Assembly (NCBI GenBank): GCA_019636495.1
Contig: JAHBXL010000014.1
Coordinates: forward strand, 54,061 to 118,060
Reading direction: 5' to 3'
Length of the DNA stretch: 64,000 bases
From: Phycisphaeraceae bacterium
GTDB taxonomy: Bacteria; Planctomycetota; Phycisphaerae; Phycisphaerales; UBA1924
Within the stretch, counting starts at the first letter, position 1. Every line of letters begins with the position of its first letter. A program made the position numbers and the translations under genes. Shown in pieces: positions 13,270 to 36,870 of the stretch. The notes beneath the pieces are model-generated. The model saw only the letters and a program-made list of their open reading frames with translations, was not told the DNA's origin and made no database searches.

Positions 13270-13298
13270 CCCGATTGCACGGCGGGCATCCAAGGGCC

Positions 13299-15457: not shown

Positions 15458-15546
15458 AACCGCGCGGCACGCCGCGGCATCCGAGCAGCGTCGTTGCAAC
15501 CAATCCGTTCACGCGCGTCCCCACACACCAACTCGGAGAACACACC

Positions 15547-19600: not shown

Positions 19601-22455
19601 TTCGCGCCGATGTCGCCGCCCGGCGCGCCGACGGCGAGCGTGTCGCCCCAGATGCTCACCGATTGGCCGAAAAGGTCCGCGGCCGCGCCATCGAATGCCG
19701 TGAGGTGCGCCTGCTGCGACCACGATGAGCCGTTGCGGGCAAAGACATGGACCGAGCCCCGGTCGGTTGCTGCGCCCACATCGTCCAGCGCCGCTCCCAC
19801 CACCGCCCAATCGCCCCAGACCGCGACGGCGTTGCCGAACCGATCATCCTCCGCACCGGCCGCGGCCTCCAACTTCGCCTGCTGGCTCCACGATGTGCCC
19901 GTGCGCGTGAACACGTACGCCGCGCCCTGGTCGCTGTTGCCGCCGATGTCGGCCAGCAGCGCGCCCACCACCACCGTGTCCGCCCAGATCGACACCGCGC
20001 GCCCGAAGGCATCCTGCGCAGCGCCATCCTCGGCGATGACCCTGGCCTGCTGCGTCCAGGTCGTGCCCATGCGCGTGAAGATGTACGCCGAGCCGTGGTT
20101 GTTCACACCGCCGGTATCGTCCCCCGGCGCGCCGACAACGATGGTGTCCCCATCAATGGCCACCGATGAGCCGAAGTTGTCGTCCGCGGCACCATCGGCC
20201 GCGGTCAACACGGCCTCGTGCACCCAGCCCGACCCGGTCCATCGGTACACGTGGGCCGAGCCCTGGTTGGCATTGGCGCCGACATCATCTCCATCAGAGC
20301 CCACCACCAGCGTGTCGCCATCGATCGCCACCGCGCCACCGTAGCGGTCGTTCGCAGCGCCCGAGGGCGGCCCGAGTTGAACGGGCGTGCTCCGCGGCGA
20401 GGTAAAGGACTCGACCGTGATCTCCGGACCCGGTGGCGGCGGCTCGGCCGGCAAGGCCACGCGGCGGATACGGTTGACGCCAAGCCCCGCATCCGAGATG
20501 TACACCGCGCCATCGGGGCCGACGCCCACGCCGCCGAGTTGGGTGAAGGTCGCATCGAGCGCGGGCCCGCCATCGCCGGTGTTGCCGATTGCGCCGGTAC
20601 CGGCAAAGAAGGAGATCTCGCCGAGCGCGAGGTCAGCGCGCCACACGCGATGCGCGCCACCGATGAGCAGACGGCCCTGACCATCGACCGCGACATCGAC
20701 GGCGAAACCGAGATTCGCCGTGTTCGGCGACCCGCTCGCACCGCTCCCGCCGCCCCCGCCGGCGACGATCGACCAGGTGGAAGTGGCGGTGTTGTAGCGG
20801 TGGATGCGCGAGTTTCCAGTACGGTCGAGTACATACACATTCTCGGCCGCATCGACCGCGACTCGGCGCGGATCGATAAACACGTCCGACAGCGATGTGA
20901 TGATCCCGGTGACAGCATCGACGCGGCGGAGGGCGAAATTGCTCGTGTCGGCAATATAGATATCGCCATCGGGCGCGACAGCGACACCTTCCGGGACCGC
21001 CAATCGTGCAGAAGTCGCCGGACCGCCATCGCCCGTGTAGCCGATCAACCCGTTGCCCGCAACGGTCGTGATGATGCCGGTGTTGCGGTCAATGCGGCGG
21101 ATGCGGTGGTTGGAGGCGTCGCAGAAGAACACATTGCCAGCGCTGTCAACGGCGATTCCGAGCGAGGCAGCAATCTGTGCCGCGGTGCCCGGCCCGCCAT
21201 CGCCGGAGTATCCCAATGAGCCCGTGCCCGCGATGGTTGTGATAATGCCCGTCGCGGCATCCACACGGCGAATGCGGAAATGGGTGTTGTCGACGATGAA
21301 CACATTGCCGCTCGCATCGACCGCGACGCCCTGTGGCGCTGCGAGTTGCGCTGCCGACGCTGGCCCGCCATCGCCCAGACTCGCGCCACCGCCCGCGAAG
21401 GCGTTGATGATCAGAGGGGGCGGCGGCGGCGGTGGCGGCGCCACGCGTCGGATGCGGTTGACGCCAAGCCCCGAATCCGAGATGTACACCGCGCCATCGG
21501 GTCCGCTCCCGACACCCCCGAGCAGCACAAAGGTCGCATCGAGCGCTGGTCCGCCATCGCCATCATCCCCCTCCGCGCCGGTTCCGGCAAAGAAGGAAAT
21601 CTCGTCGAGCGCGAGGTCGGCGCGCCACACGCGCCGAGTACCGGCAATGAGCAAGCGGCCCTGGCCATCCACAGCGATGTCGCGGGCGACACCGAGATTC
21701 GCCGTGTTCGGCGACCCGCTCGCACCGCTCCCGCCGCCCCCGCCGGCGACGATCGACCAGGTGGAAGTGGCGGTGCTGTAGCGGTGGATGCGCGAAGAAC
21801 TGCTGCGGTCCATCACGTAGACGTTCTCGGCCGCATCGACCGCGACTCGGCGCGGATCGAGAAAAACGTCAGACAGCGATGTGATGATCCCGGTGACGGC
21901 ATCGACGCGGCGGAGGGCGAAGTTCTGCGTATCGGCGATGTAGATATCCCCATCCGGCGCGATGGCGACACCTTGAGGAAGTGCAAGCCGCGCGGAAGTC
22001 GCCGGACCGCCATCGCCCGTGTAGCCGAACAGGCCGTTGCCCGCAACGGTCGTGATGATGCCGGTGTTGCGGTCAATGCGGCGGATGCGGTTGTTGGAGA
22101 AGTCGCAAAAGTAGACATTCCCCACGCCATCGACGGCGATGCCGATCGTTCCCGAGATCATGGCCGCCGTCCCCGGTCCGCCATCGCCGGAGTATCCGAA
22201 TGTTCCCGTTCCCGCGATGGTGGTGATGATGCCCGTCGCGCCATCCACACGGCGAATGCGGAAGTGGGTGTTGTCGGCGATGAACACATTGCCGCTCGCA
22301 TCGACCGCGACGCCTTGTGGCGCTGCGAGTTGCGCTGCCGAAGCCGGCCCGCCATCGCCCAGACTCGCGCCACCGCCCGCGAAGGCGTTGATGGTCTGTG
22401 CACAAGCCATCGACCCACACAGCAGAACCGCTGCCGCGAACATCGACTTCAACAT
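16663..22455 (-). CDS. giant secreted multidomain protein: 2x NHL-repeat modules, about 14 FG-GAP-like repeats, beta-helix-like region, C-terminal dockerin-like DIFAFL..WFA module
   Basis: Signal peptide MLKSMFAAAVLLCGSMACAQ. NHL-like units (GVAVDASGNVFIADNTHFRIRRVD). About 14 repeats of D.FG.SVAI.GDT.VVGA. The C-terminus is CPADFDGDGVVGVPDIFAFLAAWFAYEPRADFDNNGVLAVPDIFAFLSAWFAGCP. Confidence 0.85.
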   Translation of the reverse strand: MLKSMFAAAVLLCGSMACAQTINAFAGGGASLGDGGPASAAQLAAPQGVAVDASGNVFIADNTHFRIRRVDGATGIITTIAGTGTFGYSGDGGPGTAAMISGTIGIAVDGVGNVYFCDFSNNRIRRIDRNTGIITTVAGNGLFGYTGDGGPATSARLALPQGVAIAPDGDIYIADTQNFALRRVDAVTGIITSLSDVFLDPRRVAVDAAENVYVMDRSSSSRIHRYSTATSTWSIVAGGGGGSGASGSPNTANLGVARDIAVDGQGRLLIAGTRRVWRADLALDEISFFAGTGAEGDDGDGGPALDATFVLLGGVGSGPDGAVYISDSGLGVNRIRRVAPPPPPPPPLIINAFAGGGASLGDGGPASAAQLAAPQGVAVDASGNVFIVDNTHFRIRRVDAATGIITTIAGTGSLGYSGDGGPGTAAQIAASLGIAVDSAGNVFFCDASNHRIRRIDRNTGIITTVAGNGLIGYTGDGGPATSARLAVPEGVAVAPDGDIYIADTSNFALRRVDAVTGIITSLSDVFIDPRRVAVDAAENVYVLDRTGNSRIHRYNTATSTWSIVAGGGGGSGASGSPNTANLGFAVDVAVDGQGRLLIGGAHRVWRADLALGEISFFAGTGAIGNTGDGGPALDATFTQLGGVGVGPDGAVYISDAGLGVNRIRRVALPAEPPPPGPEITVESFTSPRSTPVQLGPPSGAANDRYGGAVAIDGDTLVVGSDGDDVGANANQGSAHVYRWTGSGWVHEAVLTAADGAADDNFGSSVAIDGDTIVVGAPGDDTGGVNNHGSAYIFTRMGTTWTQQARVIAEDGAAQDAFGRAVSIWADTVVVGALLADIGGNSDQGAAYVFTRTGTSWSQQAKLEAAAGAEDDRFGNAVAVWGDWAVVGAALDDVGAATDRGSVHVFARNGSSWSQQAHLTAFDGAAADLFGQSVSIWGDTLAVGAPGGDIGANANQGSVYVYVRTGAAWNPQAKVTASPGTANANLGHSVALHGDTLAAGAWLETIDGASNRGAMYIFARSGAAWMQQARLAAPDGTAMDQFGAAVALWGDTAVGGAPFDDVEGNTDQGSAWVFSRLGTKWIGPDLMLLASDGAANDEFGTVVAIDGDTIVVGSPRSDVGGDLDRGAAYVFVRSGLSWVQQAKLTAADGAASDRFGAAVAIKGDTIVVGAPNHDVDAFTDTGAAYVFVRSSATWTQQAKLTTSTGVGLQASQRFGSAVALVSESIAFIGAPGRTVGDAFARGLAFRYTRSGSTWSQASFGPFDCGDCFGYGYGGRIIASANRVVVVTVPQFTGSNGEVYALVPGQFGGWESDGRIGTGVPGQDDNFAFSVALQGTTVLVGAPGKSMQGLLNVGLVYVFERTSGGWVEQAQLVAPDARVNGFFGRSVALDGDRAYIGALNDTESTLSNRGLVYVFSRNGTTWTEQGKLVVADAAAQDQLAWSLAAAEGTVFAGAYLDDVGSNSNQGSVRLFEVPRDGLAFAANNSLGTAHASLAAALLGAQSGHQITATQQAWADIGSLDTLGRSLGLNSTGDLRTPSTSILTLGGSSFLAAAPGQSLDIFGQVRSSAGSSVDLIGEMFSLGSRGTLTARINSSLTINAAEVCFDGPVRVEQGAALNLIGGSGATVIAPTTFLSNSSMIADGPFVNLDTFNMSGGGLAAPLFWNRSAVNIFGSTAQFGDYRNESGATTTIRSGTLYIFGTLVNNGTIIGPVCSGCLGGPPAVEVSGNLIIGPDADLRMTADDAAVLVGGNFDCAINSHTRFNLAAATLRMEGPGGERTLEVMSRDMGPVASGLDSAVAGQYPLGQLVIGPAPTIVRLVDQHDNDNLGQGACEAVYVDTLRIHAGSRLINPACKVYYNTLINHGVVDVPGNLVQIAPPCPADFDGDGVVGVPDIFAFLAAWFAYEPRADFDNNGVLAVPDIFAFLSAWFAGCP
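20455..22392 (-). repeat. tandem duplication, 2 x approximately 984 bp (328 codons), inside the giant gene
   Basis: aa 22-339 and aa 350-667 are near-identical (INAFAGGGASLGDGGPASAAQLAAPQGVAVDASGNVFI... through GVNRIRRVA), separated by a Pro8 linker. Confidence 0.85.
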
Positions 22456-22604
22456 GATGCACGCCCTTTCGCTTCCGATCTGCCCCGTGCCGCCGCCATC
22501 GCGGACCCCGAGAGACCCCGGACCTTGACCGCAACGCCGTATGGACTACCCCCGCCGCGGCGGCGATTGGACAGGTGCCCGAGAAATTTCCGCGGATTTC
22601 TTTT

Positions 22605-22690
22605 GCCCCCAGCCCTCCTCCCCGTCCTCCGCCCCCCCCCTCGCCCCCCTTCCACCCACCCCGCCTCCCGGCCACCCCCCGCCGCCCCTG
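22605..22690. repeat. C-rich (G-rich on minus strand) low-complexity tract with a C9 homopolymer
   Basis: ccccagccctcctccccgtcctccgccccccccctcgccccccttccacccaccccgcctcccggccaccccccgccgcccc. C9 run at 22632-22640. Lies 150-235 nt upstream of the giant gene start on its coding strand. Confidence 0.8.
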
Positions 22691-22819
22691 AACCGGCAGG
22701 GACAAGCAGACCGAGCGCGCACTCTGAGCCTCAGCGGCCACTCAAGCCACATACTGGCAGAGACTTCCGCCGCGAACCGGAACTTGATCCCCCGCCTCTC
22801 CCCCCCAACCCGCCGCCTC

Positions 22820-22860
22820 AAAAAGCACAAACCCCCGCGACTCAATCGACTTCGCAGGGG
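22820..22860 (-). terminator. rho-independent-like terminator (minus strand), probably the original tRNA-Phe terminator displaced by the insertion
   Basis: CCCCGCGA (22833-22840) and TCGCAGGGG (22852-22860) form a stem with one bulge. On the minus strand it is followed by TTTGTGCTTTTT (rc of 22820-22831). It lies 35 nt beyond the orphan tRNA 3' copy. Confidence 0.45.
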
Positions 22861-22894
22861 CGTTCAAGGATTCCGGCCGAAGCGGCGAGACAAG

Positions 22895-22918
22895 CAATGG
22901 GCAGGGCCGGACTTGAAC
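22895..22918. repeat. att direct repeat, left copy (orphan 3' end of tRNA-Phe)
   Basis: CAATGGGCAGGGCCGGACTTGAAC is identical to 31165-31188. Confidence 0.8.
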
Positions 22919-23141
22919 ACCCCCGGGAATCGCCGGGAAACAAGGGTGTTTCACTTTCAAGCGGCGCAAAATGCGGCGCACTTGGCGGCGATTCTGCCCC
23001 AACACCGACCCCGGCGACGCCCACCGATCCCGAGTTGGCGGCGGTGGTCGCGGCATGGCCGACGATCCCCCCGGCGGTGCGGGCGGCCATCGTGGCGATG
23101 GCGAAGGCGAGCGGCCCGGCCAAGGGCGGGAGGGGCGAGCG

Positions 23142-23489
23142 ATGACCGGTACACCGTCACCAAACGGATCGAACGGCCACCCGCCAACGTTCGGCCGCGA
23201 TGGACGCGGGCGGTTCGCAGAGGGCAATCGCGGCGGGCCGGGCAATCCGCACGCCCGGCGGACGGCCGAACTCCGGGCCGCGATGCTGGGGGCGGTATCC
23301 GCCGACGATGTACGCGACGTGATCCGCGCTCTGGTGGAGCGTGCGCGCACGGGCGACACGGCCGCGGCGCGTGAACTGCTAGACCGCACGCTGGGCAAGG
23401 CGGGCGACGCCGCGGACCTGCTGGCGCGGCTTGACGAACTCGAATCGAGGATCGCGGGTACGGGCAGTTTCGGGGAGGCTTTCCAATGA
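23142..23489 (+). CDS. small element protein, DUF5681-like (GRFAEGNRGGPGNP motif)
   Basis: ATG at 23142. GRDGRGRFAEGNRGGPGNPHARR followed by a helical region (ALVERARTGDTAAARELLDR) resembles small phage/plasmid DUF5681 proteins, from memory. Confidence 0.5.
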   Translation: MTGTPSPNGSNGHPPTFGRDGRGRFAEGNRGGPGNPHARRTAELRAAMLGAVSADDVRDVIRALVERARTGDTAAARELLDRTLGKAGDAADLLARLDELESRIAGTGSFGEAFQ

Positions 23490-23710
23490 CAGACGCCAAA
23501 GAACGAATCCGCCGGCTGGAACTCGCCACGTCGCGTCGGCGCGGGCCGGCGTGCGCGGTCAACGTCGCGGCCCTTCAGACCTTGGCGGCGGACCCTGCCA
23601 CGTGGGCGCGGTTCGCGGCCCTCTCGGACAGACTCGGCAAGGGCGAGCGCGTCCGGGATCAAGAGTGGCGCGAACTCGCGGAACTCGCCGAGCGGAAGGC
23701 GGACCGATGA
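23486..23710 (+). CDS. hypothetical element protein (74 aa)
   Basis: The ORF start overlaps the upstream stop (ATGA at 23486-23489). No recognisable domain. Confidence 0.45.
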   Translation: MTDAKERIRRLELATSRRRGPACAVNVAALQTLAADPATWARFAALSDRLGKGERVRDQEWRELAELAERKADR

Positions 23711-23964
23711 CCGCGCCACGGAATCGGCTGCTGAGGCTGGAGCGTGCGATCATCCGCCACGGTCGCGTTTGTCCGGCGTGCGCTGCGGCCACGCTGACCG
23801 CGACGCCCCCGCCGGTTGTACGGCGCATCCGTGATCCGGTCCCTGCCAGCGCGCCACCCACGCCCTGCGCGGCGTGCGGCGCGGTGCCGGTGGTGGTGCG
23901 GATTCTCCCGCCACGTTCTGCGCGGGCGTGGGTAGACTGGGCGGCAAACGGGCATCGGGATTGA
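23707..23964 (+). CDS. hypothetical element protein with two CxxC pairs (zinc-ribbon-like)
   Basis: ATG at 23707 overlaps the upstream stop (ATGA). CPAC ... CAAC spaced about 40 aa apart. Confidence 0.45.
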   Translation: MTAPRNRLLRLERAIIRHGRVCPACAAATLTATPPPVVRRIRDPVPASAPPTPCAACGAVPVVVRILPPRSARAWVDWAANGHRD

Positions 23965-24052
23965 TCCCCCGATGAACGGATCGGGCTGGGGTCTTTGGCG
24001 CTCACTCGCCCCAAGACCCCGCCCGACCGGCCCGAGAAAGGCGAGTGAACCA

Positions 24053-25882
24053 ATGGCACGGAAGCCCACGCCGGCGAAGGCGAAGAAACCGAAGGCATCG
24101 CCCCCGACGCCGGTCCCGGCGACGACGACCGATCATGCGATCGCGGGAGCCGGTCCCGGTGATCCTGTCTCTGACGCCCTGACCCGCCACGAAGCGCAGA
24201 GGAAAGCGGACGAAGCGAAACTACTCGCCGATCCGGTGTTCCGTGCTGCTGCTGAACACGGCAAGCGATGGGAGTTGGCACAACGCGCGGCGGCGGACGC
24301 GGCCGCGCCGTTCCGGGCGGAAGTGGACAAACTGATCGCGGATCATCCGCACGGGTACGCGCCCGAGTCGGAGACGGCACGGCGCTTCGACGCGCTCAAG
24401 TGGGCGATTCAAGACGCGGAAACGAAGGCATACGCGGCGCATGGTTTCCAGCAAACGACGGCCCCCAAGTCGCCCGCTGACCTGCTGGCACGGTTGAAGC
24501 GGGTCGAACTCAACTGGTGGTTTGACCTGCAAGAAACCGCAAACCTGCCCCGCCCGAGTGAACTTCTCTGGCAGGATGCGGAAGGGCTGCGGAAGCGCGA
24601 TCCCTTTCTCCCCGAGTTGCCCGCTAAGCCCGACGCGGGGAGAGAGCGGTACGCGGCCCTTATCCGCTGGTGCGAAGATTGCGCGCGTGCTCGCAACGAA
24701 AGCCCCGCCGATCAAGCATTCGGCGCGGCCCGCGCGTTCGTTGAATACCTGGCGATGGTGGCGCAACGCGCCCGCGAGTATCGCCCAAGCCCCGACAAAC
24801 CCGACGCATGGCAAGACGTGGCGTTCAACTTCGCCGAAGCGTTCATCGCGTGGTTTGACCTGACGCACCTGCTGACGCCGGCGGTTTGCACCGAAGCCCG
24901 GCGGGTGTATCCGCCCGGCGCGGCGTCGATCAAGTTGCGAGCGAGCAACGAAACGGCCCCGGTTGTACCGGCCATGCCGGCGAGCGTGGTAAACGGGTTG
25001 GCGGTGTATCGACGGGTGACGCTGGGCGCGACGCCCTACCCCACGGTGATCGAAGCGGTGGCCGATGAGTTGGGGGTCTACTTCCGAAACGCGGTCTACA
25101 CCGGGCGGCGGCATCCTCTGGAACCCGACCTAGACCGATTGATCGGCGAAGCGAAGGCCCGCGCAACGGCGCGGCAAGTCGCCCAAGGCAAACCGGCGGA
25201 ACCGATGGGGTGGCGCGCGGACCTAGACGAACTGAGGGCGAAGGAAACCCGCGCGGTGGTGCGGGAACGGCTGGGGGTCAAGACCTACGGCGACGGTCAA
25301 GACCTGATGATGCGCGAATGGACCGGCCAAGACCGGGCGCGGGGTGAATCGGCGCTTTGGCTGCTGCGGTGCGATGGGATCAACTTCGCGGACCTGCGGA
25401 TGCAACTGGTGCGCGAAGCCGAAGCGGTGATCGCGTCGGCGAACAAGCCCCGCGCCCCGACAATCGACCCCGAACTACTGCAACGGCTGGAAGCCGGCAT
25501 CGCGGCGGTTCATTCCATCGGGAGCAACTTCGATGCTGGCATGGCGCGGGTCGGGCGCGTGATCGAATCCCTGGGCACACAGGATGACAACAACGGCGAC
25601 GCGAAGCCCCCGGCCCTGTCCGCTGGTGTGGAGGCGATCGACGAACACGACGCGGCGCTACTGGCGTTTCTCAATCGAAACCCAAGTCTGCGGCGCAAGG
25701 TTTCGGACGTGCTGCCCGACAAAGGACCACAAGACCGAAAGGCGGTAGCGAAGCGACTGCGGAAGTTGGCCGATCGAACGCCCCCGCTAGTGGACTACCC
25801 GAAGGATGGACGGTCGGGCGTGGTGATACTGCCCGCTGGGTCGGAAGCGTTGAAGCGAGCGACCGCGCCGACGCCCCGCTAA
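24053..25882 (+). CDS. 609-aa orphan element protein, Lys/Pro-rich N-terminus, helical body, C-terminal winged-helix-like segment
   Basis: ATG at 24053 (MARKPTPAKAKKPKASPP), in frame within ORF 23972..25882. No motif I recognise. The C-terminus (AALLAFLNRNPSLRRKVSDVL...AVAKRLRKLADRTPPLVDYPKDGRSGVVILPAG) looks wHTH-like. Confidence 0.65.
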   Translation: MARKPTPAKAKKPKASPPTPVPATTTDHAIAGAGPGDPVSDALTRHEAQRKADEAKLLADPVFRAAAEHGKRWELAQRAAADAAAPFRAEVDKLIADHPHGYAPESETARRFDALKWAIQDAETKAYAAHGFQQTTAPKSPADLLARLKRVELNWWFDLQETANLPRPSELLWQDAEGLRKRDPFLPELPAKPDAGRERYAALIRWCEDCARARNESPADQAFGAARAFVEYLAMVAQRAREYRPSPDKPDAWQDVAFNFAEAFIAWFDLTHLLTPAVCTEARRVYPPGAASIKLRASNETAPVVPAMPASVVNGLAVYRRVTLGATPYPTVIEAVADELGVYFRNAVYTGRRHPLEPDLDRLIGEAKARATARQVAQGKPAEPMGWRADLDELRAKETRAVVRERLGVKTYGDGQDLMMREWTGQDRARGESALWLLRCDGINFADLRMQLVREAEAVIASANKPRAPTIDPELLQRLEAGIAAVHSIGSNFDAGMARVGRVIESLGTQDDNNGDAKPPALSAGVEAIDEHDAALLAFLNRNPSLRRKVSDVLPDKGPQDRKAVAKRLRKLADRTPPLVDYPKDGRSGVVILPAGSEALKRATAPTPR

Positions 25883-25943
25883 TGCCCCCTTCCTGCCGCG
25901 CAGAATCCCCACGGTAGAAACGCCCACGCCCTTTCGTGTGGGC

Positions 25944-26159
25944 ATGATCGAAGAAAACAAGAAACCGTTGTACCTGGGAGCGATGGCCCGCCGGTTGCGC
26001 GTCCCCGCGACGTGGCTGCGGGCCGAAGCCGAAGCGGGACGAATCCCGCACCTGCGCGCGGGTAGTGCGCTGCTGTTCGATCCCGAAGTAGTGGAGCGGA
26101 TCGTTTTCGATCGGCTGCGCGAATCGTCCACGCCGGCGAAGGGGGTGTCGCGTGGCTGA
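25944..26159 (+). CDS. excisionase/MerR-type helix-turn-helix DNA-binding protein
   Basis: MIEENKKPLYLGAMARRLRVPATWLRAEAEAGRIPHLRAGSALLFDPEVV is typical of excisionase-family HTH proteins. Confidence 0.6.
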   Translation: MIEENKKPLYLGAMARRLRVPATWLRAEAEAGRIPHLRAGSALLFDPEVVERIVFDRLRESSTPAKGVSRG

Positions 26160-26367
26160 ACTCCCGAACATTCCGGGCGCGGCCCCGTTGGCGATGCGCC
26201 CGAAAGACGCGGCGAAGGCACTGGGCATCGGGCAACGCAAGTTGTGGGAACTCTCCCAACCACGCGGGCCGATCCCGTGCGTTCGCATCGGCTGTTGTGT
26301 GCTGTACCCCTACGCCCTGCTGCAAGCATGGCTGGCCGAGCAAGCGGCCAAGGGGGGCGAGCAATGA
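26152..26367 (+). CDS. AlpA/excisionase-like HTH protein
   Basis: MRPKDAAKALGIGQRKLWELSQPRGPIPCVRIGCCVLYPYALLQAWL. GTG at 26152 (8-nt overlap) or ATG at 26194. Confidence 0.55.
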   Translation: MAELPNIPGAAPLAMRPKDAAKALGIGQRKLWELSQPRGPIPCVRIGCCVLYPYALLQAWLAEQAAKGGEQ

Positions 26368-26789
26368 ACACGCCCCCAAGAAACGACGCGGCCCCGTCTG
26401 GCAACGGGGCGAGCGCCAATCGGTCGAACACTTCACCCGATTCTACGTTGGCCCGGCTGCCCCTGACCCCACCCGCGCGGCACAACGCGCCGGCGGGTAC
26501 GTCCGGCGTCGCGGCGGATCGGATCGCCGTCCACGCGAAAGACCTGCGCGCCCGCGTCCTGGCGTTCATCGTCGGCCAAGGCCCGCACGGCGCAACCGAC
26601 GACGAAGGGGAAGCGGCGCTGGGGATCAAGTGTCAGACGTACACGCCCCGGCGCGGTGAACTTGTCGCCCTGGGGCTGGTGGTCGATTCGGGACGCCGGC
26701 GGAACACGGTGAGCGGTCGCCCGGCGGCGGTGTGGGTGACGCCCAACCACGCCCCCCCCACGCCGAAGCCGGAAGGGGGTGCGGCATGA
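26364..26789 (+). CDS. hypothetical element protein with winged-helix-like C-terminal half
   Basis: ATGA overlap at 26364-26367. LRARVLAFIVGQGPHGATDDEGEAALGIKCQTYTPRRGELVALGLVVDSGRRR. Confidence 0.5.
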   Translation: MNTPPRNDAAPSGNGASANRSNTSPDSTLARLPLTPPARHNAPAGTSGVAADRIAVHAKDLRARVLAFIVGQGPHGATDDEGEAALGIKCQTYTPRRGELVALGLVVDSGRRRNTVSGRPAAVWVTPNHAPPTPKPEGGAA

Positions 26790-29302
26790 GCGGCCCCGTA
26801 GAACGAATCCTGACGGCCCTACGCGAACACGGACACGAACCCCGCAAGGCCGGCGCGGGCTGGTGCTGCAAGTGTCCGGCCCACGATGATCGGGACCCTT
26901 CCCTGTCGATCCGCGCCGGCGACGACGGGCGGGCGCTGGTGAACTGCCACGCCGGTTGTACCGTCGATGCGGTGTGCGGCGCGATCGGGCTGCGGGCGTC
27001 GGACCTGTTCGAGCCGGACCCGAGCCGGCGGAACGGACACGCGCCACGGACCCGCCAGAGTGTCACCGTCACCACAACCCCACGGAAGCCCGCACGAAAC
27101 GCGGGTATCGGTGACGGTGACGCCAAGACGTTCCCCACGGCCCGCGACGCGGTGGCCGAGTTGGAGCGGCGGCACGGCCCGCGATCGACGACCTGGACGT
27201 ACCACAACGCGGCAGGCGAGCCGGTGGGGCTGGTGGTGCGGTGGAACACGCCCACCGGGAAAGACGTGCGCCCGGTGTCGCGGAAGGCGGACGGATCGGG
27301 CTGGATCATCGGCGGGATGCCCACGCCCCGCCCGTTGTACGGGCTGCCCGACCTGCTGGCGACGCCGGCGGGATCGCGGGTGCACGTCACCGAAGGCGAG
27401 AAAGCGGCGGACGCGGCCCGCGCGGTCGGGCTGGTGGCGACGACAAGCCCGCACGGTTCCAAGTCGGCGGGCAAGGCGGATTGGTCCCCGGTGGCGGGGC
27501 GCGAAGTTGTGATCCTGCCCGACCATGACGACGCCGGCGAGCGGTACGCCGACGACGTGGCGCGGCTGGCGACGGCTGCGGGCGCGAAGTCGGTGCGGGT
27601 GGTGCGATTGGTTGAACTGTGGGCAGACCTGCCCGAAGGCGGCGATATGGCGGACCTGGTGGAGCATCGCGGCGGGGACGTGGACCCGATCCGCGCGGAA
27701 GTCGAAGCCCTGACGATCAACACCGAGCCGGAAGCGGTGACGCCCGACGCGCCGGCGGTCCCCGCGTTCGCGCCCTTCCCGGTGGACGTGCTGCCTGAGC
27801 CGATCCGGTCTTTCGTCGCGGACGCGGCGAAGGCGATCGGGTGCGATCCGTCCTACGTCGCCCTTCCCCTGCTGTCGGGGCTGGCATCGGCGATCGGCAA
27901 CACCCACCGGATCGCGCTGAAGCGCGGGTGGACCGAGCCGGCGATTGTGTGGACGGCGATCGTGGGGGAGTCGGGGACGATGAAAACACCCGCGTTCAAG
28001 TTGGCGATGAAGGCGATCCGCAAGGCGCAAGCCGATGCGTTCAAGGAACACGACGCGGCACGGGCCGAATGGGAAGCCCAACACCTGCGGTATGAAGCCG
28101 AGTTGACGGGGTGGAAGCGGGACGCGGCGAAGAAACGCGGCGGCGATGACGGGTACACCGTCGCCCCACCCGAGAAACCCACCCCGCCGATCGCGCGTCG
28201 GTACATCGTGTCCGACACCACAACCGAAGCCCTGGCCCCGATCCTGCTGGGCAACCCGCGCGGCGTGCTGCTGGCCCGCGATGAACTCGCCGGCTGGTTG
28301 GGATCGTTCGACCGCTACGCGAAGGCGGGGAAGGCGGGCGCGGACTCCGCGCATTGGCTGTCGATGCACAACGGCGAATCCATGACGATCGACCGCAAGA
28401 CCGGGATACCGCCGACGATCCACGTTCCATCGGCATCGGTGAGTATCACGGGCGGGATTCAACCCGGCATCCTGGGGCGGGCGCTGGGGCAGGAACACCA
28501 CGAAAGCGGCATGGCGGCGCGGGTGCTGTACGCGATGCCCCCGCGCAAGGCGAAGCGGTGGACCGAATCCGACGTGGACGCGGACACCGAAGCGGCGGTG
28601 GCGGCGGTGTTCGATCGGCTGTTCTCTCTCACGATGGAAGTCGATCCCGAAGGCCCGCTGCTGGAACCGGACTGTCGGCCCCGGCTGGTGCGGCTGGCCG
28701 ACGATGGGAAGGCGGCGTGGGTGCGGTTCTACAACGAACACGCGACCGAGCAAGCGGAACTGTCCGGCGACCTGTCGGCGGCGTGGTCGAAGTTGGAGGG
28801 GTACGCGGCCCGGCTTGCGCTGGTGGTTCACTTGACCCGCTGGGCGGCGGGTGACGCCACGCTACGCGATCCGGCGCGGGTCGATGAGGCGAGCATCGCG
28901 GCGGGCGTGGTGTTGGCCCGGTGGTTCGGCGACGAAGCCCGGCGCGTCTACGCGATCCTGTCCGAGAGTGACGACGACCGAGAAACCCGGCGGCTGGTGG
29001 AATGGATCGAACGCAAGGGCGGCACGGTGACGGCCCGCGACCTGACCCACGGGGTGCGGGCGTATCGCGGCGATCCTGACGCGGCGGAACGCGCCCTGTC
29101 GGCGCTGGTGGAAGCGGGCATCGGGTGTTGGGAAGCCGACGCCCACGGCCCGAAGGGTGGCCGACCCGCCCAACGATTCCGGCTTGTCTCCACCGTCACC
29201 GTCACCGAAACCCCCGCGAACGCCGGGAAAGACGTGGGTTATGGTGACGGTGACACCGGGGACACGGCCACGGACGCCGGCGACGGCTGGGGGGAACTGT
29301 GA
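26786..29302 (+). CDS. primase-helicase-like replication protein (CHC2-like Zn finger, Toprim, DUF3987-like C-terminal domain)
   Basis: ATGA overlap at 26786-26789. CKCPAHDDRDPSLSI...NCHAGC. Toprim-like VHVTEGEKAAD...VVILPDHDDAGERYA. DUF3987-like FPVDVLPEPIRSFVADAAKAIGCDPSYVALPLLSGLASAIG...IVGESGTMKTPA. Confidence 0.75.
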   Translation: MSGPVERILTALREHGHEPRKAGAGWCCKCPAHDDRDPSLSIRAGDDGRALVNCHAGCTVDAVCGAIGLRASDLFEPDPSRRNGHAPRTRQSVTVTTTPRKPARNAGIGDGDAKTFPTARDAVAELERRHGPRSTTWTYHNAAGEPVGLVVRWNTPTGKDVRPVSRKADGSGWIIGGMPTPRPLYGLPDLLATPAGSRVHVTEGEKAADAARAVGLVATTSPHGSKSAGKADWSPVAGREVVILPDHDDAGERYADDVARLATAAGAKSVRVVRLVELWADLPEGGDMADLVEHRGGDVDPIRAEVEALTINTEPEAVTPDAPAVPAFAPFPVDVLPEPIRSFVADAAKAIGCDPSYVALPLLSGLASAIGNTHRIALKRGWTEPAIVWTAIVGESGTMKTPAFKLAMKAIRKAQADAFKEHDAARAEWEAQHLRYEAELTGWKRDAAKKRGGDDGYTVAPPEKPTPPIARRYIVSDTTTEALAPILLGNPRGVLLARDELAGWLGSFDRYAKAGKAGADSAHWLSMHNGESMTIDRKTGIPPTIHVPSASVSITGGIQPGILGRALGQEHHESGMAARVLYAMPPRKAKRWTESDVDADTEAAVAAVFDRLFSLTMEVDPEGPLLEPDCRPRLVRLADDGKAAWVRFYNEHATEQAELSGDLSAAWSKLEGYAARLALVVHLTRWAAGDATLRDPARVDEASIAAGVVLARWFGDEARRVYAILSESDDDRETRRLVEWIERKGGTVTARDLTHGVRAYRGDPDAAERALSALVEAGIGCWEADAHGPKGGRPAQRFRLVSTVTVTETPANAGKDVGYGDGDTGDTATDAGDGWGEL

Positions 29303-29637
29303 ACCCGCACCCCCACGAACTCGCCCCGCTGCTGCTGGCCCTTGGACGGGCAGGGATCGAACTGGCCCCGCACCCGACCGACGCGGGCCGGCTGCGGCAT
29401 CGCCCGGCGAACCTGCCCCCCGAACTGTCGGCGCGGCTGCGGTTGCACCGGGCGGCGGTCCTGGGGCTGCTGCCCCCCCACGGCGGGTACGCCCCGGACG
29501 CCCACGCGGCGGACGGCAACGCGGCGTACGTCTACGGCGAACGGCTGGGCGTCGCGGACGGGCTGGGGCTGGCGACGCACCCCGGTTCGGCGGCGTGGCT
29601 GGTGGCGGTCGGGGAGTCGATGGGGGCGAGCCGATGA
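29299..29637 (+). CDS. hypothetical element protein with TubC_N-like docking motif
   Basis: GTGA overlap at 29299-29302. LLLALGRAGIELAPHPTDAGRLRHRPANLPPELSARLRLHRAAVLGLL resembles the TubC N-terminal docking-domain pattern, from memory. Confidence 0.45.
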   Translation: MNPHPHELAPLLLALGRAGIELAPHPTDAGRLRHRPANLPPELSARLRLHRAAVLGLLPPHGGYAPDAHAADGNAAYVYGERLGVADGLGLATHPGSAAWLVAVGESMGASR

Positions 29638-29885
29638 AACTTGCACAATGGGAAGTATTGGGGTACGATTGTGGCATGGCGACGGCGAGCGAAACCCTGC
29701 GGCGTGAGTTGGGGCGGTGCGGGCAGACCCGCTACGCAGTGAGCAAGGCGACGGGGATTCCTGAATCGGTACTATCGCGTTTCACCCACGGCCAACCGTT
29801 GCGCGGTGCAAACTTCGACAAGTTGGCGGACTACTTGGGGCTGGTGCTGACGGCGAAGGCGGGCAAGACCACGAAGGGACGGTGA
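29634..29885 (+). CDS. XRE-family HTH protein
   Basis: ATGA overlap at 29634-29637 (alternative ATG at 29676). LRRELGRCGQTRYAVSKATGIPESVLSRFTHGQPLRGANFDKLADYLGL. Confidence 0.55.
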   Translation: MKLAQWEVLGYDCGMATASETLRRELGRCGQTRYAVSKATGIPESVLSRFTHGQPLRGANFDKLADYLGLVLTAKAGKTTKGR

Positions 29886-29888
29886 CGT

Positions 29889-31229
29889 ATGGCGAGCGTT
29901 TCACGCGATGCGAATGGAACCCGGCGGGTGCTGTTCACCGACCGCGAAGGCGAGCGGAAGGCGGTGCGGCTGGGCAGGGTTTCGGCCAAGACCGCCGAAG
30001 CGTTCCGGCTGAAACTCCAAGACGTGATCGCGGCCCGGTTCACCGAAACCGCGATCGACGCGGAAACGGCCCGGTGGCTGGCGGACCTGCCCGACCGTAT
30101 GTATGCCCGGCTGGTGCGCGTTGGGCTGGCCGATCCCCGCGCCAGCGCGTCGCGGGTGACGCTGGGCGGGCTGCTGGCGGCTTTCTTCGCCGGCGTGGAC
30201 GTGAAGCCCGCAACGCGGGTGCGCATGAAGCAAGCCGAAACCGCGCTGGTGGACTACTTCACCGACGCCCGCGACGTGGCGACGATCGGCGAAGCCGACG
30301 CCGACGAATGGCGGGCGAGTCTCACGAAAGCGGGGTACGCGGCGGCGACGATCAGCCGGACGGTCCTGTACGCCCGGCAAGTGTTCCGCTGGGCGATGCG
30401 TCGGGGCATGGCGAGCGGCAACCCCTTCGCGGAGTTGAAGGCGGGGGCGCAAGTGAACCACGCCCGCGCGGTGTTCGTGTCGCGGGAGTCGATTGCCAAA
30501 GTGATCGACGCGGCCCCCGATGCCGAATGGCGGCTGTTGATTGCCCTGTCCCGGTTCGGCGGGCTGCGCGTTCCGAGTGAAGCCCTTGCCCTGCGGTGGT
30601 CGGACGTGGATTGGGAACACAACCGGCTGACGGTGCGAAGCCCCAAGACGGAACACCACGAAGGGAAGGGGGAGCGGATCATCCCGCTGTTCCCCGAGAT
30701 TCGGGAACACCTGCAAGCGGTGTTCGACGCGGCCCCGGTCGGATCGGTGAGCGTGATCGGGCGCTACCGAGAGGGCGCGAACCTGAATCCGCACTTCCGG
30801 CGGATCATCAAGCGGGCGGGGCTGACGCCCTGGGATCGGACGTGGCACAACCTGCGGGCGAGCCGGCAAACCGAACTGGCGGCGACGTTCCCGCTGCACA
30901 CCGTTTGCGCGTGGATCGGGAACACGAAGGCGATCGCGGCGGGGCACTACCTGCAAGTCACCGACGCCGATTGGACCCGCGCCACGGGTGCGGCTGGGGG
31001 CTGCGGAGAAAGCGGCGCAAAAGGCGGCGCACTTCCGACGCAAAATGCGGCGCGGCATCCGTCCGCACCGGATCGCGGGCGTTCGCGGGAATCGACGGAA
31101 GCGCCTTGTTTTGCTGGTGTTTCGCAACCGGACGCGGACGAACGCGAAGCGGTGCAAAACGATCCAATGGGCAGGGCCGGACTTGAACCGGCAACCCCCG
31201 CATTTTCAATGCGGTGCTCTACCAATTGA
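29889..31229 (+). CDS. tyrosine-type site-specific integrase
   Basis: Catalytic-domain pattern: LSRFGGLRVPSEALALRW (Arg), WHNLRASRQTEL (H-x-x-R), AWIGNTKAIAAGHYLQV (His, Tyr). The ORF runs about 90 codons past the catalytic Tyr, through the att core and 62 nt into the tRNA-Phe gene. That tail is low confidence. Confidence 0.85.
   Translation: MASVSRDANGTRRVLFTDREGERKAVRLGRVSAKTAEAFRLKLQDVIAARFTETAIDAETARWLADLPDRMYARLVRVGLADPRASASRVTLGGLLAAFFAGVDVKPATRVRMKQAETALVDYFTDARDVATIGEADADEWRASLTKAGYAAATISRTVLYARQVFRWAMRRGMASGNPFAELKAGAQVNHARAVFVSRESIAKVIDAAPDAEWRLLIALSRFGGLRVPSEALALRWSDVDWEHNRLTVRSPKTEHHEGKGERIIPLFPEIREHLQAVFDAAPVGSVSVIGRYREGANLNPHFRRIIKRAGLTPWDRTWHNLRASRQTELAATFPLHTVCAWIGNTKAIAAGHYLQVTDADWTRATGAAGGCGESGAKGGALPTQNAARHPSAPDRGRSRESTEAPCFAGVSQPDADEREAVQNDPMGRAGLEPATPAFSMRCSTN
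31165..31188. repeat. att direct repeat, right copy (within intact tRNA-Phe 3' end)
   Basis: Identical 24-mer to 22895-22918. It covers the last 21 nt of the tRNA plus 3 nt downstream. Confidence 0.8.
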
Positions 31230-31240
31230 GCTACCTACCC
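31168..31240 (-). tRNA. tRNA-Phe (anticodon GAA)
   Basis: The rc reads GGGTAGGTAGCTCAATTGGTAGAGCACCGCATTGAAAATGCGGGGGTTGCCGGTTCAAGTCCGGCCCTGCCCA. Cloverleaf with anticodon loop TTGAAAA. CCA not encoded. Confidence 0.9.
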
Positions 31241-32539: not shown

Positions 32540-32942
32540 TCTCCGGCCGCGGCCCGGTCCGAAGCTGCGCCCAAGGAACCGCCTGTTCACGCAGGAGGGC
32601 GGGGACGACGAGGGCCAGGACACCTATCTGTCCGAGTACACCTCCAACCTCCTCAACCAGTACACCCTCCGCGACGTATCAGGGAACGTGGAAGTCGTCG
32701 GCCGCACCAGTTCGAGTTCCGTCGCGGCGGTCGCCGTGAACAGCAGTGAAGCGTGGCTGGAGCACCGCATGTTCCACAAGCGGCTGACCTTCAACAACTT
32801 CTCCGACCCCGTGGTCGGCACGGTGAACGTGCTGGAGGTCCCGGGCCTGAGCTCAAGCAGCAAGGTCTTCCTGCCCGAGGACCCCGAGGAGTTCTGGTAC
32901 GATCCCGATGGCAACCTCACCCGCGACGGCGTCTGGCACTAG
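32540..32942 (+). pseudogene. start-less fragment of an RHS/YD-repeat-type protein
   Basis: The frame is open directly from the gap stop codon: ...YLSEYTSNLLNQYTLRDVSGNVEVVGRTSSSSVAAVAVNSSEAW...VFLPEDPEEFWYDPDGNLTRDGVWH*. The NxLNQYT and YDPDGNLTxDG motifs are typical of the N-proximal part of RHS-family proteins. No credible start and only about 130 codons. GC looks locally lower. Confidence 0.5.
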
Positions 32943-32976
32943 AATATAGAAGAACCCCCGCCGGGAAGGACGGGGG
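32941..32976 (-). terminator. rho-independent-like terminator for the minus-strand gene 33018..35879
   Basis: CCCCCG (32955-32960) pairs with CGGGGG (32971-32976). On the minus strand the stem is followed by TTCTTCTATATTCT. Confidence 0.45.
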
Positions 32977-33017
32977 CTCTGGGTAAACTCATGCACTGGC
33001 GAATGCCTGGATCGAAC

Positions 33018-35879: not shown

Positions 35880-36018
35880 TGAAAACCTCCACGAGCAAAT
35901 GAGGAACTTGCAGGCCGCGGACTCTCCGCAGCGGTATCAAGGCTGGTATACCGCGGGTCGCAGATAAACGCAAGTTGCCGGCAGAGTGGGGCCACCTGGG
36001 GTTTGTGGAGGATTACCC

Positions 36019-36046
36019 TTGCGTCCACGGCCCGATGTGGTATGAT
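36019..36046 (+). promoter_or_regulatory. candidate sigma-70 promoter (extended -10)
   Basis: TTGCGT, 16-nt spacer, then TGgTATGAT. It ends 37 nt upstream of the ATG at 36083, in a locally AT-richer stretch. Confidence 0.35.
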
Positions 36047-36082
36047 TTGGACTCTCTCTCCACTGACCTAAAGAGGTGTCCC

Positions 36083-36658
36083 ATGTTCCGCAATGAGCGC
36101 CGAGGCTTCGTCCTTGCCGGATGTGTGGTTATCGGGCTGGGGGCGTACACGTCACAAGCAGAGCTTGTCACGAATGGCGGGTTTGAATCGGGGAGCTTCG
36201 CGCCTTGGTTTGCGCCACCTTGGGTGTTACCGCCCCAGCCAAATCCTCAGTACTTTGTGGTCAGCTCCGGCGGCGCACACAGCGGCAATCACTACGCCAT
36301 TCTTTCCTCATCAACCTTCCAGTACATCAGCCAGGTGCTGCCGACGACGGCGGGCACGGACTACGAACTGACCTTCTGGCTCAGGCGGCCGGGCAATGTG
36401 CCATCGACGTTTATCGTGCGATGGGAGGGCCAGATCGTCTTCCAAGAGGGCATCCTCCTCCCCGACAACACCAACTGGTGGCAGTTCACGGTTCCGTTGC
36501 ACTCGAACATCACCGGTTCATTCCTCGAACTTGGACAGGCCACCTTTCCGAACGAGTTTCACATCGACGACATCAGCGTGGTGCAGGTGCCCGGGCCGGG
36601 CGGCGCAGCCCTCTTCGCCGCGGCGGGAGCTTTCGCGCTGCGGCGCAGGCGGCGGTAA
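36083..36658 (+). CDS. PEP-CTERM-anchored protein with CBM/jelly-roll-like domain
   Basis: AAGAGG RBS then MFRNERR. ELVTNGGFESGSFAPW is typical of a CBM4/9-like or DUF642-like beta-sandwich. The C-terminus VPGPGGAALFAAAGAFALRRRRR is a PEP-CTERM sorting signal variant. Confidence 0.75.
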   Translation: MFRNERRGFVLAGCVVIGLGAYTSQAELVTNGGFESGSFAPWFAPPWVLPPQPNPQYFVVSSGGAHSGNHYAILSSSTFQYISQVLPTTAGTDYELTFWLRRPGNVPSTFIVRWEGQIVFQEGILLPDNTNWWQFTVPLHSNITGSFLELGQATFPNEFHIDDISVVQVPGPGGAALFAAAGAFALRRRRR

Positions 36659-36787
36659 GTGAACTACTCGTTCTCCTTCCCCCCGCGCCGCGATACGTCC
36701 GCACGAGGGGCAGCCGATCGGCCAGCCCGGCGGTCGCTGCGCCGCGATCGCGGGCGGCTCGTTGAAGAGCACCACCGTCGGCAATTC

Positions 36788-36870
36788 CGCCCCGCCGCAG
36801 ACCTGCACCCACCGCCCCCCTCCCCCGCACCCCCCCCCGCCCTCACCGCCCCACTCGCTCACCGCCCCTC
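36788..36870. repeat. second C-rich tract with a C9 homopolymer
   Basis: cgccccgccgcagacctgcacccaccgcccccctcccccgcacccccccccgccctcaccgccccactcgctcaccgcccc. C9 at 36830-36838. Lies between convergent genes and overlaps the last 4 codons of the 36859..37239 gene. Confidence 0.8.

Follow-up and report, generated by a model that had tools for sequence, protein, structure and literature searches.

A stretch of 64,000 nucleotides from a Phycisphaeraceae (Planctomycetota) genome (GenBank assembly GCA_019636495.1, contig JAHBXL010000014.1, positions 54,061 to 118,060), referred to here as the window, carries a small integrative element in a tRNA-Phe gene. The tyrosine integrase gene of this element (int) runs through the attachment core and into the tRNA without a stop codon, while a short open reading frame (ORF) that starts in the opposite attachment core, g0, encodes what appears to be the other version of the integrase C-terminus. 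The features on which this reading depends are as follows.

22895-22918, forward strand: attL core, an exact copy of a 24-mer, holding the displaced 3′ end of tRNA-Phe (21 nt) plus 3 nt
31165-31188, forward strand: attR core, an exact copy of the 24-mer, which restores the tRNA-Phe 3′ end (ARAGORN)
31168-31240, reverse strand: tRNA-Phe(GAA), the intact integration target (ARAGORN; Rfam RF00005, 74.6 bits)
29889-31229, forward strand: int (g11), tyrosine integrase in its integrated, "IntX-like" form of 446 amino acids (aa) (PF00589, AlphaFold2 model, ORF end)
22897-23145, forward strand: g0, the "Int tail exon", beginning at an ATG within the att core, with a stop that overlaps the start of g1 (ATGA)

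The 24-mer, CAATGGGCAGGGCCGGACTTGAAC, was found exactly twice in the window; no third site was present at up to 3 mismatches, and none arose in 100 shuffles. The initial annotation had placed one copy at the 3′ end of tRNA-Phe and called the other an orphan, and the repeat search, ARAGORN and Rfam all bore this out; the dispersed repeat that it had named as a contrary outcome was not what was found in the window. The right copy comprises the last 21 nt of the tRNA and 3 nt further, and no tRNA body accompanies the left copy. When attL and attR were aligned, their identity extended over exactly 24 nt, with the flanks differing on either side. An intact tRNA, an orphan repeat and identity confined to the 24-mer make up the classic signature of integration at a tRNA 3′ end. 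As in Islander-type islands, the intact tRNA and the displaced 3′ repeat lie at opposite ends of the element, 8,270 bp apart (attL core start to attR core start), with a PF00589 integrase gene adjoining tRNA-Phe. The locus is a real att-bounded integrative element in the tRNA-Phe of a Phycisphaeraceae genome, and NCBI proteins from a Phycisphaeraceae metagenome-assembled genome match both the g4 protein of the element and the neighbouring GAPDH at 100% identity. Base composition proved unusable as an indicator of foreign origin, as the guanine plus cytosine (GC) content of the element (0.64-0.74) is near that of the left flank.

The int ORF has no stop before the att core, which at attR is read as ...NDP-MGRAGLE. 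It then runs 62 nt antisense into tRNA-Phe and ends in ...PATPAFSMRCSTN*, so that the last 13 residues of the 446-aa form (PATPAFSMRCSTN) are encoded by the tRNA. The core at attL is identical, and g0 reads it in the int phase (MGRAGLE-HPRES..., ending DPELAAVVAAWPTIPPAVRAAIVAMAKAS...). Because both cores are in the same phase with no intervening stop, the reconstructed excised circle contains one continuous int ORF of 508 aa that passes through attP, and, since no stop codon is present, the circular form must translate the fusion. Integration exchanges the last 75 aa of Int for the 13 tRNA-encoded residues and leaves the tail segment, g0, stranded 8.3 kb away at attL. The codon for the catalytic Y354 lies at 30948-30950 and the att core lies 3′ of it within the ORF; indeed, all ∼250 bp of attP, made up of two P-arm repeats, the 24-bp core and a single P′-arm repeat, are inside int, downstream of the catalytic tyrosine. 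Read from the sequence, then, the integrase gene spans its own attP, and integration swaps the encoded C-terminus of the enzyme. This is the most distinctive feature of the locus and one that the initial annotation overlooked. In the integrated state, the int ORF and its mRNA are antisense to tRNA-Phe over 62 nt (window 31168-31229).

A survey limited to one genome per species returned 338 confirmed relatives, the best 80 of which were retained. These 80 belong almost exclusively to the Planctomycetota, with Phycisphaerales the closest and Tepidisphaerales, Pirellulales, Gemmatales and Planctomycetaceae also represented. Two culturable bacteria, Adhaeretor mobilis HG15A2 (L052) and Fontivita pretiosa B-254 (L069), are among the carriers of the family. 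For 74 of the 80, the catalytic domain is closely followed by a tRNA gene on the opposite strand, and the targets include tRNAs for Phe, Val, Ile, Leu, Met, Lys, Glu, Ser, Arg, Ala, Tyr and Gln. Between the catalytic domain end and a point 9 nt into the tRNA, the int frame stayed open at 72 of 75 integrated loci, compared with 24/75 and 21/75 for the other two frames (binomial p 5e-34). The linkers concerned vary in length (median 56 codons, GC 0.60), and the preservation of the frame in spite of this indicates selection on reading through the core. The phase at the other end was assessed in elements with an exact attL repeat within 10 kb, which ranged in size from 6.2 to 9.6 kb. The attL core led in the int phase into a canonical tail motif in 11 elements and into a variant helical tail in two, with an expectation by chance of one third; the tail was out of phase in a single element (L060) and absent or decayed in four.

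Evidence for the fused gene was also sought in excised forms of relatives. The hypothetical 508-aa fusion, used as a query, gave 3,563 protein hits, and homolog classes were counted among the best 120 of these. Twelve of the 120 are long forms that cover 97-99% of the fusion, tail motif included (eleven of 484-529 aa, and P0013 of 650 aa), and many of the long forms lie on contigs of 8.5-9.3 kb. About 85 of the 120 terminate in a tRNA-encoded peptide in the same phase, as integrated copies do, and two use the third phase. Contig L001 (JGI, 8,558 bp), whose Int is 79% identical, first runs collinear with window 26375-31188, then has a single core (1 mismatch), and then continues as window 22878-23108; it carries exactly the predicted attP junction. 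A relative with a Prim-Pol replicase, contig L088 (Logan, 8,907 bp; Int 66% identical), has its end bridged to its start by L089, a contig from a different sequencing run that matches with 100% identity. Together they describe either a closed circle of 8,903 bp or a concatemer joined head to tail, with neither tRNA nor host DNA, in which a 514-aa int extends across attP. No terminal overlap was detected in L001, L088 or other short contigs when these were tested for circularity, and the closure of L088 therefore rests on the bridging contig L089. The type of attP junction foreseen in the initial annotation is thus seen in relatives, in the L001 junction and the L088/L089 closure.

Direct repeats resembling the arm-type sites of heterobivalent integrases flank the core on both sides.

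31010-31053, forward strand: P arm-type repeats inside the int ORF, complete at 31010-31034 and partial at 31038-31053 (direct repeats)
22959-22983, forward strand: P′ arm-type repeat AAGCGGCGCAAAATGCGGCGCACTT, candidate site for the Int N-domain, a direct repeat of the 31010 and 31038 sites

The copy at 31010 reads GCGGCGCAAAA[G/T]GCGGCGCACTT. Ten of 11 elements shared a direct repeat of 12-27 nt between the P side (∼−160 to −125, often as two tandem copies) and the P′ side (∼+38 to +55), with conserved positions and sequences that co-vary between elements. The repeats behave like arm-type sites and are candidate Int sites; as they lie in coding sequence, they give rise to the repeated "SGAKSGAL" linker peptides. 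In a side comparison of two attP-form integrases, P0002 (on contig L001) and P0008, the proteins were identical over residues 1 to ∼370, wholly different in the linker and arm regions (type A, GAKSGAL...AQNAAQH, versus type B, AAANPATQARP...KTQNPQNP.DLVGVGV), and alike again in the tail motif. Exchange of the attP arms appears to be modular and separate from that of the recombinase domains.

An AlphaFold2 model of the 508-aa Int, built on an alignment of 68 sequences, had a mean predicted local distance difference test score (pLDDT) of 81. It comprises an N-terminal three-strand sheet and helix at 1-52 (pLDDT >93), core-binding and catalytic domains to residue 366, a stretch predicted to be disordered at 369-460, and two confident helices, 471-482 and 485-498, forming a two-helix hairpin (pLDDT ∼79-88). 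The linker of ∼100 aa is that encoded by the attP arms and core. Foldseek returned full-length lambda Int (1z1b_A, 374 aligned columns) as the top match, followed by Tn1549 Int and Xer proteins, and the catalytic residues R227, K253, H320, R323, W342 and Y354 are invariant. The model suggests a lambda-type heterobivalent integrase with an N-terminal domain resembling an arm-binding domain and, at the C-terminus, a small pair of helices for which the circular form alone has the coding sequence.

The tail motif itself, DPELAAVVAAWPTIPPAVRAAIVAM, is encoded at 23026-23100 within g0, and its consensus is DPELAAVVAAWPxLPxAIRAxIxAM, a conserved C-terminal two-helix motif. Int homologs of 484-529 aa have a g0-type segment as their C-terminus. 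A profile of 36 positions matched 9,443 clusters at E <= 1e-3, most of them short attL-side ORFs with tRNA-core peptides in frame before the motif, and one fused to another integrase subfamily; no Pfam family matches the tail. Differences in the 25-codon motif were distributed 756:454:1001 by codon position, with a ratio of nonsynonymous to synonymous differences (pN/pS) of 0.60, which points to a coding-like, moderate constraint. The possibility that the tail serves as an ssrA-like degron was considered and judged unlikely, given that its ends are variable (GGGR, GSEP, AAAK, TTP). Four small proteins (P0287, P0288, P0292 and P0343) carry two to four tandem copies of the AWPxLxxxxR tail motif and have no integrase domain, which suggests that the motif is an autonomous folding or interaction unit.

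The same arrangement was encountered in a larger genome. In L099 (IMGVR_UViG_3300005529_000016; 43.8 kb), an Int of 43% identity reads across an attP-type junction into an AWP-type tail, within the region 5041-16220. The int gene is followed by ORFs that look VRR-NUC-like and HNH-like from their translations, and then by PHROG matches to the small terminase (TerS), large terminase (TerL), portal, protease and major head protein. L099 is likely a temperate Planctomycetota phage that uses the same switch.

An integrase gene that contains its own attP is known from Mx8, a phage of Myxococcus, in which integration makes a new 3′ end (intX) with altered activity (PMC6070905); the arrangement is also noted in PMC4383910. 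As in Mx8, attP lies in int downstream of the catalytic tyrosine, integration at a tRNA 3′ end gives int its new 3′ end, and arm sequences stand on both sides of the core within the ORF, those of the present element being candidate repeats. The Mx8 Int (533 aa) has its tyrosine at ∼354, then a linker, the core peptide ...STGLEPV... and a tail of ∼110 aa; its ...TGLEP... and the GLE of the present element are read across the tRNA T-arm in one and the same phase. Integration of Mx8 reportedly replaces 112 C-terminal residues with 13. Small helix-turn-helix (HTH) proteins are encoded upstream of int here, and the one upstream in Mx8, Uoi, is an excisionase. However, Mx8 is a 49.5-kb tailed phage rather than an 8.3-kb replicon without virion genes, the present family has a conserved AWPxLPxxxR two-helix motif of its own, and its architecture is conserved phylum-wide, with at least 12 tRNA species targeted. 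A tblastn search against 50,697 phage records gave only generic integrases of ∼25% identity and no match to Mx8.

Integrases that disrupt their own gene have been called exclusively archaeal (PMC8371274). The archaeal SSV-type "suicidal" integrases and their integrative carrier plasmids (pTN3, pT26-2 and the pRN family; PMC8371274) likewise have attP inside int, are split by integration into a tRNA, and form a compact, exchangeable int-att unit, often on small plasmids with primase-helicase replicases. The split in SSV-type enzymes, however, severs the catalytic domain from the N-terminal part and leaves the gene inactive (PF16795, confined to archaea), whereas the recombinase (PF00589) here is left whole and only a C-terminal appendage is exchanged: the DNA-binding and catalytic domains (1-366) stay contiguous, and the protein matched PF00589 and PF02899, not PF16795. 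With lambda, the element shares the predicted three-domain fold, arm-type repeats around the core of a ∼250-bp attP, and Xis-like small HTH proteins. As with sib retroregulation in lambda, the position of attP relative to int makes the expression or the product differ between the free and integrated states; in lambda, though, attP is outside the int ORF and acts via mRNA stability, whereas here it would act via the protein sequence. In mycobacteriophages BPs and Brujita, attP is said to lie in the repressor gene, such that integration removes a degradation tag. These phages also place attP within a coding sequence and alter the C-terminus of a protein by integration, but in the present element it is the integrase that is remodelled, the XRE regulator gene (g10) is untouched, and the tail ends are not ssrA-like.

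Genes of the element were picked by codon-position GC, as the high GC content of the DNA (67%) makes ORF lists noisy. Twelve co-oriented, densely packed genes lie between the att cores, several with overlapping stops and starts. Those between g0 and int are listed below.

23142-23489, forward strand: g1, small DUF5681-like protein, translationally coupled to g0 (Pfam DUF5681 E 9e-4, below cutoff; phrog_38011)
23486-23710, forward strand: g2, 74-aa protein, its start overlapping the g1 stop
23707-23964, forward strand: g3, 85-aa protein with CxxC...CxxC (zinc-ribbon-like, from the sequence)
24050-25882, forward strand: g4, 609-aa all-alpha protein, variable cargo (100% identical to NCBI KF699_12100)
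25938-26159, forward strand: g5, small HTH protein, weakly excisionase-like (phrog_1840 excisionase, E 0.007)
26152-26367, forward strand: g6, HTH_17 (AlpA/Xis-type) protein, candidate recombination directionality factor (PF12728 E 2.3e-5, slightly under cutoff; phrog_66 excisionase)
26364-26789, forward strand: g7, winged-HTH-like protein (phrog_1123)
26786-29302, forward strand: g8, primase-helicase with a zinc finger/Toprim N-terminus and DUF3987, the replicase of the element (PF13148 (DUF3987) E 8e-76; Toprim_3 weak; PHROG DNA primase and helicase)
29299-29637, forward strand: g9, 112-aa protein kept beside the replicase (homologs in 12 related loci)
29634-29885, forward strand: g10, XRE/Cro-C1-type HTH regulator directly upstream of int (PF13443 HTH_26, 23.8 bits, above the Pfam cutoff; PHROG transcriptional repressor)

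The initial annotation had described 11 same-strand ORFs ending in a tyrosine integrase; orientation and integrase (PF00589) stand, and the addition of g0 brings the count to 12. Its primase-helicase (Toprim plus DUF3987) and XRE-type HTH were likewise recovered by profile searches. Of its two excisionase-type proteins, g6 holds up and g5 is weak, and the DUF5681-like protein, g1, is weak as well. The circular relative L088 has a g1-like gene in the same position with a match to the same weak family, and also encodes the g7 family. As a small terminase, g1 was rejected: it has no similarity to the TerS of the related phage L099, and DUF5681 has no known function. Homologs of g6 were present at 25 of 84 related loci and those of g10 at 32 related loci. 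No family matched g2 (Pfam, PHROGs, NCBIfam, PADLOC), g3 (Pfam, PHROGs, NCBIfam) or g9. Only 46 homologs of g4 were found, all from Planctomycetota and none with a Pfam domain. The protein itself had no Pfam, PHROG, NCBIfam or PADLOC match, and its AlphaFold2 model (pLDDT 73, all helices) had no significant match in PDB or BFVD; the structural hits obtained (PDB E >= 0.26; BFVD template modelling score ∼0.1 to tape-measure-like helices) were rejected as meaningless. Searches of the element proteins against Pfam, PHROGs, NCBIfam and PADLOC detected no capsid, portal, terminase, tail, lysis, relaxase, type IV coupling protein (T4CP), type IV secretion system (T4SS) or defence family, in agreement with the absence of virion and conjugation genes reported in the initial annotation. 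The remainder of the 64-kb window holds ordinary host genes, with neither a virion module nor a helper prophage.

The g8 gene also contains two modules that could serve in replication.

27062-27121, unstranded: inverted-repeat module 1, GTCACCGTCACC - 36 nt - GGTGACGGTGAC, candidate origin/iteron site in g8 (exact 12-mers)
29195-29254, unstranded: inverted-repeat module 2, the same 12-mer arms with a 36-nt spacer, 2133 nt from module 1 (exact 12-mers)

Four exact copies of the 12-mer GGTGACGGTGAC occur in the window compared with 0.63 expected, all of them inside the element. The modules translate as VTVT...GDGD within g8, and in the relative L024 the repeat sequence and geometry are identical (7235-7294 and 9320-9379) though the protein is only 73% identical. 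On these grounds, the two 60-nt modules are candidate origin or iteron sites, in a layout reminiscent of the ori/crr of P4.

In gene content, the closest match is the PICMIs, minimalist chromosomal islands that phages induce, the model for which has int, AlpA (PF05930/PF12728) and a primase (DUF3987/DUF5906) as mandatory genes (PMC10803314); the corresponding triad is present here as PF00589, PF12728 and PF13148. PICMIs, known from Vibrionaceae, integrate beside fis and are induced and packaged by virulent helper phages (PMC10803314). Both they and the present element are small, lack capsid-remodelling and packaging genes, and have a gene that is ATGA-coupled to int (iolg in PICMIs). The element differs in being located in tRNA-Phe rather than near fis, in the phylum of its host, and in an Int that spans attP, which is not reported for PICMIs. 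Hallmarks of P4 (Psu/Sid, Delta/Epsilon, a P4 alpha-type primase-helicase) were absent in Pfam, PHROGs and NCBIfam searches, the replicase being of the Toprim plus DUF3987 kind. Features of phage-inducible chromosomal islands (PICIs) or their capsid-forming variants (cf-PICIs), namely divergent repressor/activator genes and packaging genes (TerS, Ppi/Cpm or capsid), were not found either, as all genes are co-oriented, no TerS or capsid match was obtained in Pfam or PHROGs, and g4 has no counterpart among known structures. None of the libraries yielded a relaxase, T4CP or T4SS family, placing the element outside the definition of integrative mobilisable or conjugative elements, although one of the uncharacterised proteins may be a novel relaxase; and the att-bounded segment holds no virion or lysis module, as a prophage would. 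The likeness to P4-like or PICI-like satellites or a minimal mobilisable element proposed in the initial annotation is a resemblance and no more, the P4 and PICI hallmark genes and a relaxase being what is missing. We would describe the element as an Mx8-type self-remodelling integrase on a PICMI-like, plasmid-like minimal replicon.

Four related contigs, L090-L093, whose GAPDH is 90% identical to that of the window, keep tRNA-Phe, GAPDH and ∼10 kb of downstream synteny with no integrase and no element, and a DnaE-like polymerase gene lies only ∼250 nt from their tRNA. Relatives do not all share the gene set, contrary to the fixed synteny that the initial annotation had raised as a counter-indication, and tRNA-Phe is a recurrent target. 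Searches of the metagenome_contigs collection with exact attB and attP-junction patterns gave 0 hits each, and as the L001 junction itself was unrecovered, the collection evidently does not contain such contigs and neither null is informative. An integrase 98% identical to that of the window, P0001, is also found at tRNA-Phe, in a different host context and with an AAA_25 replicase; the pairing of a near-identical Int with a different replicase argues for modular exchange around the int-att cassette. L082-L084 (Int 98% identical) lie at tRNA-Phe with an ABC transporter/FabA/LolA operon as right flank, have an AAA_25-type replicase in place of the DUF3987 primase-helicase, and possess their own inverted-repeat set at 9245-9353. 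To the left of its tRNA-Phe and immediately adjoining it, L090 has at 9540-9640 the decayed fragment of a different, "type B" int linker, interrupted by a stop codon (..KPETQNPQNSSELVGVGD*..AVESEPMGRAGLE). L005 and L082 preserve similar int-linker remnants upstream of attL, and all of these are relics of previous or tandem occupants of the site.

Taken as a whole, we consider it probable that int reads across attP and that its tail is swapped on integration, although several observations weigh against this. A pristine empty site was not encountered (the left flank of L090 is not syntenic), and the attP-type junctions on contigs could stem from tandem arrays rather than free circles. The functional effect rests on the analogy to Mx8, homology to whose Int was not detected (BLASTP E = 2). 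Selection on the tail is only moderate (pN/pS 0.6), many more distant relatives of lower GC carry short Ints that lack an extension, and ∼10 of the best 120 homologs stop at a TGA within the core (NGQGRT*). The existence of these last two groups means that the tail is not indispensable to the recombinase fold. Within the NGQGRT* subclass, L086 and L087 have no attL within 10 kb and no tail motif, and are probably decayed or part of larger elements. Alternatively, g0 could be an independent small gene starting within or beside the core, its continuity with int being incidental to stop-poor, high-GC DNA and of no regulatory consequence. In favour of this, most elements have an in-frame ATG or GTG provided by the core, gene prediction yields stand-alone ORFs of 40-150 aa that end in the motif by the thousand, tandem motifs occur in proteins with no integrase, and some members end int inside the core or have no extension. 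We nonetheless regard this account as improbable, because incidental continuity would not explain why the int frame is open into the tRNA at 72 of 75 loci compared with 30% in the control frames despite variable linkers, nor why tail and int share a phase in 11-13 of the 12-14 elements that are informative when one third would do so by chance. Moreover, with no stop codon the circular form must translate the fusion, and the same layout is functional in Mx8 (PMC6070905).

How the element is transferred is a separate matter, for which two explanations are about equally likely. It may, tentatively, be a satellite of the PICMI/P4/PICI kind, in which infection by a helper phage would trigger AlpA-like excision, autonomous replication and packaging in helper capsids; this is compatible with an int that spans attP. 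The int, HTH_17 and DUF3987 triad (that of the PICMI model; PMC10803314), the 8.3-kb size, the absence of virion genes and the gene that overlaps full-length int by ATGA, like iolg, would all fit, and the same Int/attP architecture in the tailed phage L099 of related hosts means that potential helpers exist. Yet no helper phage is known and none is present in the window; no TerS, capsid-remodelling, Psu/Sid/Delta or cos-like feature was recognised, g1 being unlike phage TerS; the co-orientation of all genes is unlike PICI regulatory modules; and the closed 8.9-kb circle in two total-metagenome runs looks like a plasmid-type episome. That circle, without host DNA, is a point for the other, likewise tentative, possibility of an integrative cryptic plasmid comparable to pSAM2 or the archaeal pRN/pTN3-type, which would alternate between a low-copy episome and a chromosomal copy with no dedicated transfer machinery. 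It would spread vertically, by transformation, in vesicles, or by mobilisation via unrecognised genes such as g1-g4. The exchange of replicases (DUF3987, Prim-Pol, AAA_25) between near-identical int cassettes, the candidate origin repeats and the lack of relaxase, T4SS and virion genes are in keeping with a plasmid, but no partition or copy-control genes were recognised, and the wide spread of the family (338 confirmed loci, 3563 protein hits) implies efficient horizontal transfer, which a plasmid of this kind leaves unexplained. It is very improbable that the locus is the remnant of a larger prophage in which int and early genes outlasted the virion module. Distant members of the Int family do occur in real phage genomes (L099), and scars of related elements lie beside tRNA-Phe in L090, L005 and L082, but the two att cores are undamaged and match exactly, no ORF is interrupted and the genes are densely arranged with stop/start overlaps, the same compact gene set occurs in relatives as a complete circle or an attP-junction contig of the same size, and element sizes cluster at 6-10 kb. 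The initial annotation had left room for a virion module that would make this an ordinary prophage fragment; none was found in the element or the rest of the window.

Recombination between attP and attB interrupts int at the core. By analogy with Mx8, full-length Int would favour integration, and the truncated chromosomal form would be less active or of altered specificity. The integrated state would thereby be stabilised, and excision would depend on the HTH_17 proteins as directionality factors. The tail helices may mediate protein-protein contacts, and integration would also uncouple g0-g4 from read-through transcription out of int. A more elaborate reading, which we think rather unlikely, would make the tail an autonomous regulatory module that site-specific recombination joins to and parts from the recombinase, licensing integration in the circle while held to Int by the ∼100-aa linker (e.g., by bridging protomers of the intasome) and becoming a free, trans-acting peptide in the chromosome. 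The free tail would then be translated from the start codon in the core, coupled to g1, and act on Int, the Xis-like proteins or replication. If true, the tail module would constitute a two-state memory switch at the level of the protein, employed by elements and phages of Planctomycetota in their thousands, and would be the bacterial equivalent of the archaeal self-splitting integrases.

To our knowledge, the mobile elements of Planctomycetota are almost uncharacterised, and a survey of Planctomycetota plasmids does not mention elements like this one. The locus is complete and cleanly delimited, and it represents a highly abundant family of integrative replicons of 6-10 kb. The Mx8 architecture and the PICMI-type triad were already known; what stands out here is the phylum-wide conservation of an attP-spanning integrase and a dedicated, previously undescribed tail domain outside Pfam. 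The self-rewriting enzyme design of Mx8 would thus not be confined to one myxophage, and the family qualifies the claim that self-disrupting integrases are exclusively archaeal (PMC8371274). With int and attP in a single cassette of ∼1.5 kb and many tRNA targets, the family could supply genetic tools for the Planctomycetota, which are hard to manipulate.

The surroundings of the element yielded some minor observations. Rfam found two tRNAs and no other RNA family, and scans for promoters and terminators gave nothing beyond shuffle expectation. To the left of attL, a giant FG-GAP/NHL repeat gene occupies 16663-22455 on the reverse strand, and between its start and attL is a 440-nt non-coding, C-rich stretch with CCCCGCC-type runs (window 22456-22894). 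The 10 nt directly left of the attL core, CGAAGCGGCG, are similar to the P-arm sequence left of the attR core, CGAAGCGGTG, which could be the remnant of an older element or chance. Directly right of GAPDH lies a segment of ∼4.3 kb with lower GC (0.58-0.63; window 32540-36858) that the syntenic L090 lacks. Its coding content consists of a reverse-strand gene for a protein of 953 aa (GC-type dockerin-like domain and weak AbiEi_4), an ORF of 135 aa and a PEP-CTERM/NTTRR-F1-like protein of 251 aa, and the segment is a second insertion or variable region at the same tRNA-GAPDH locus.

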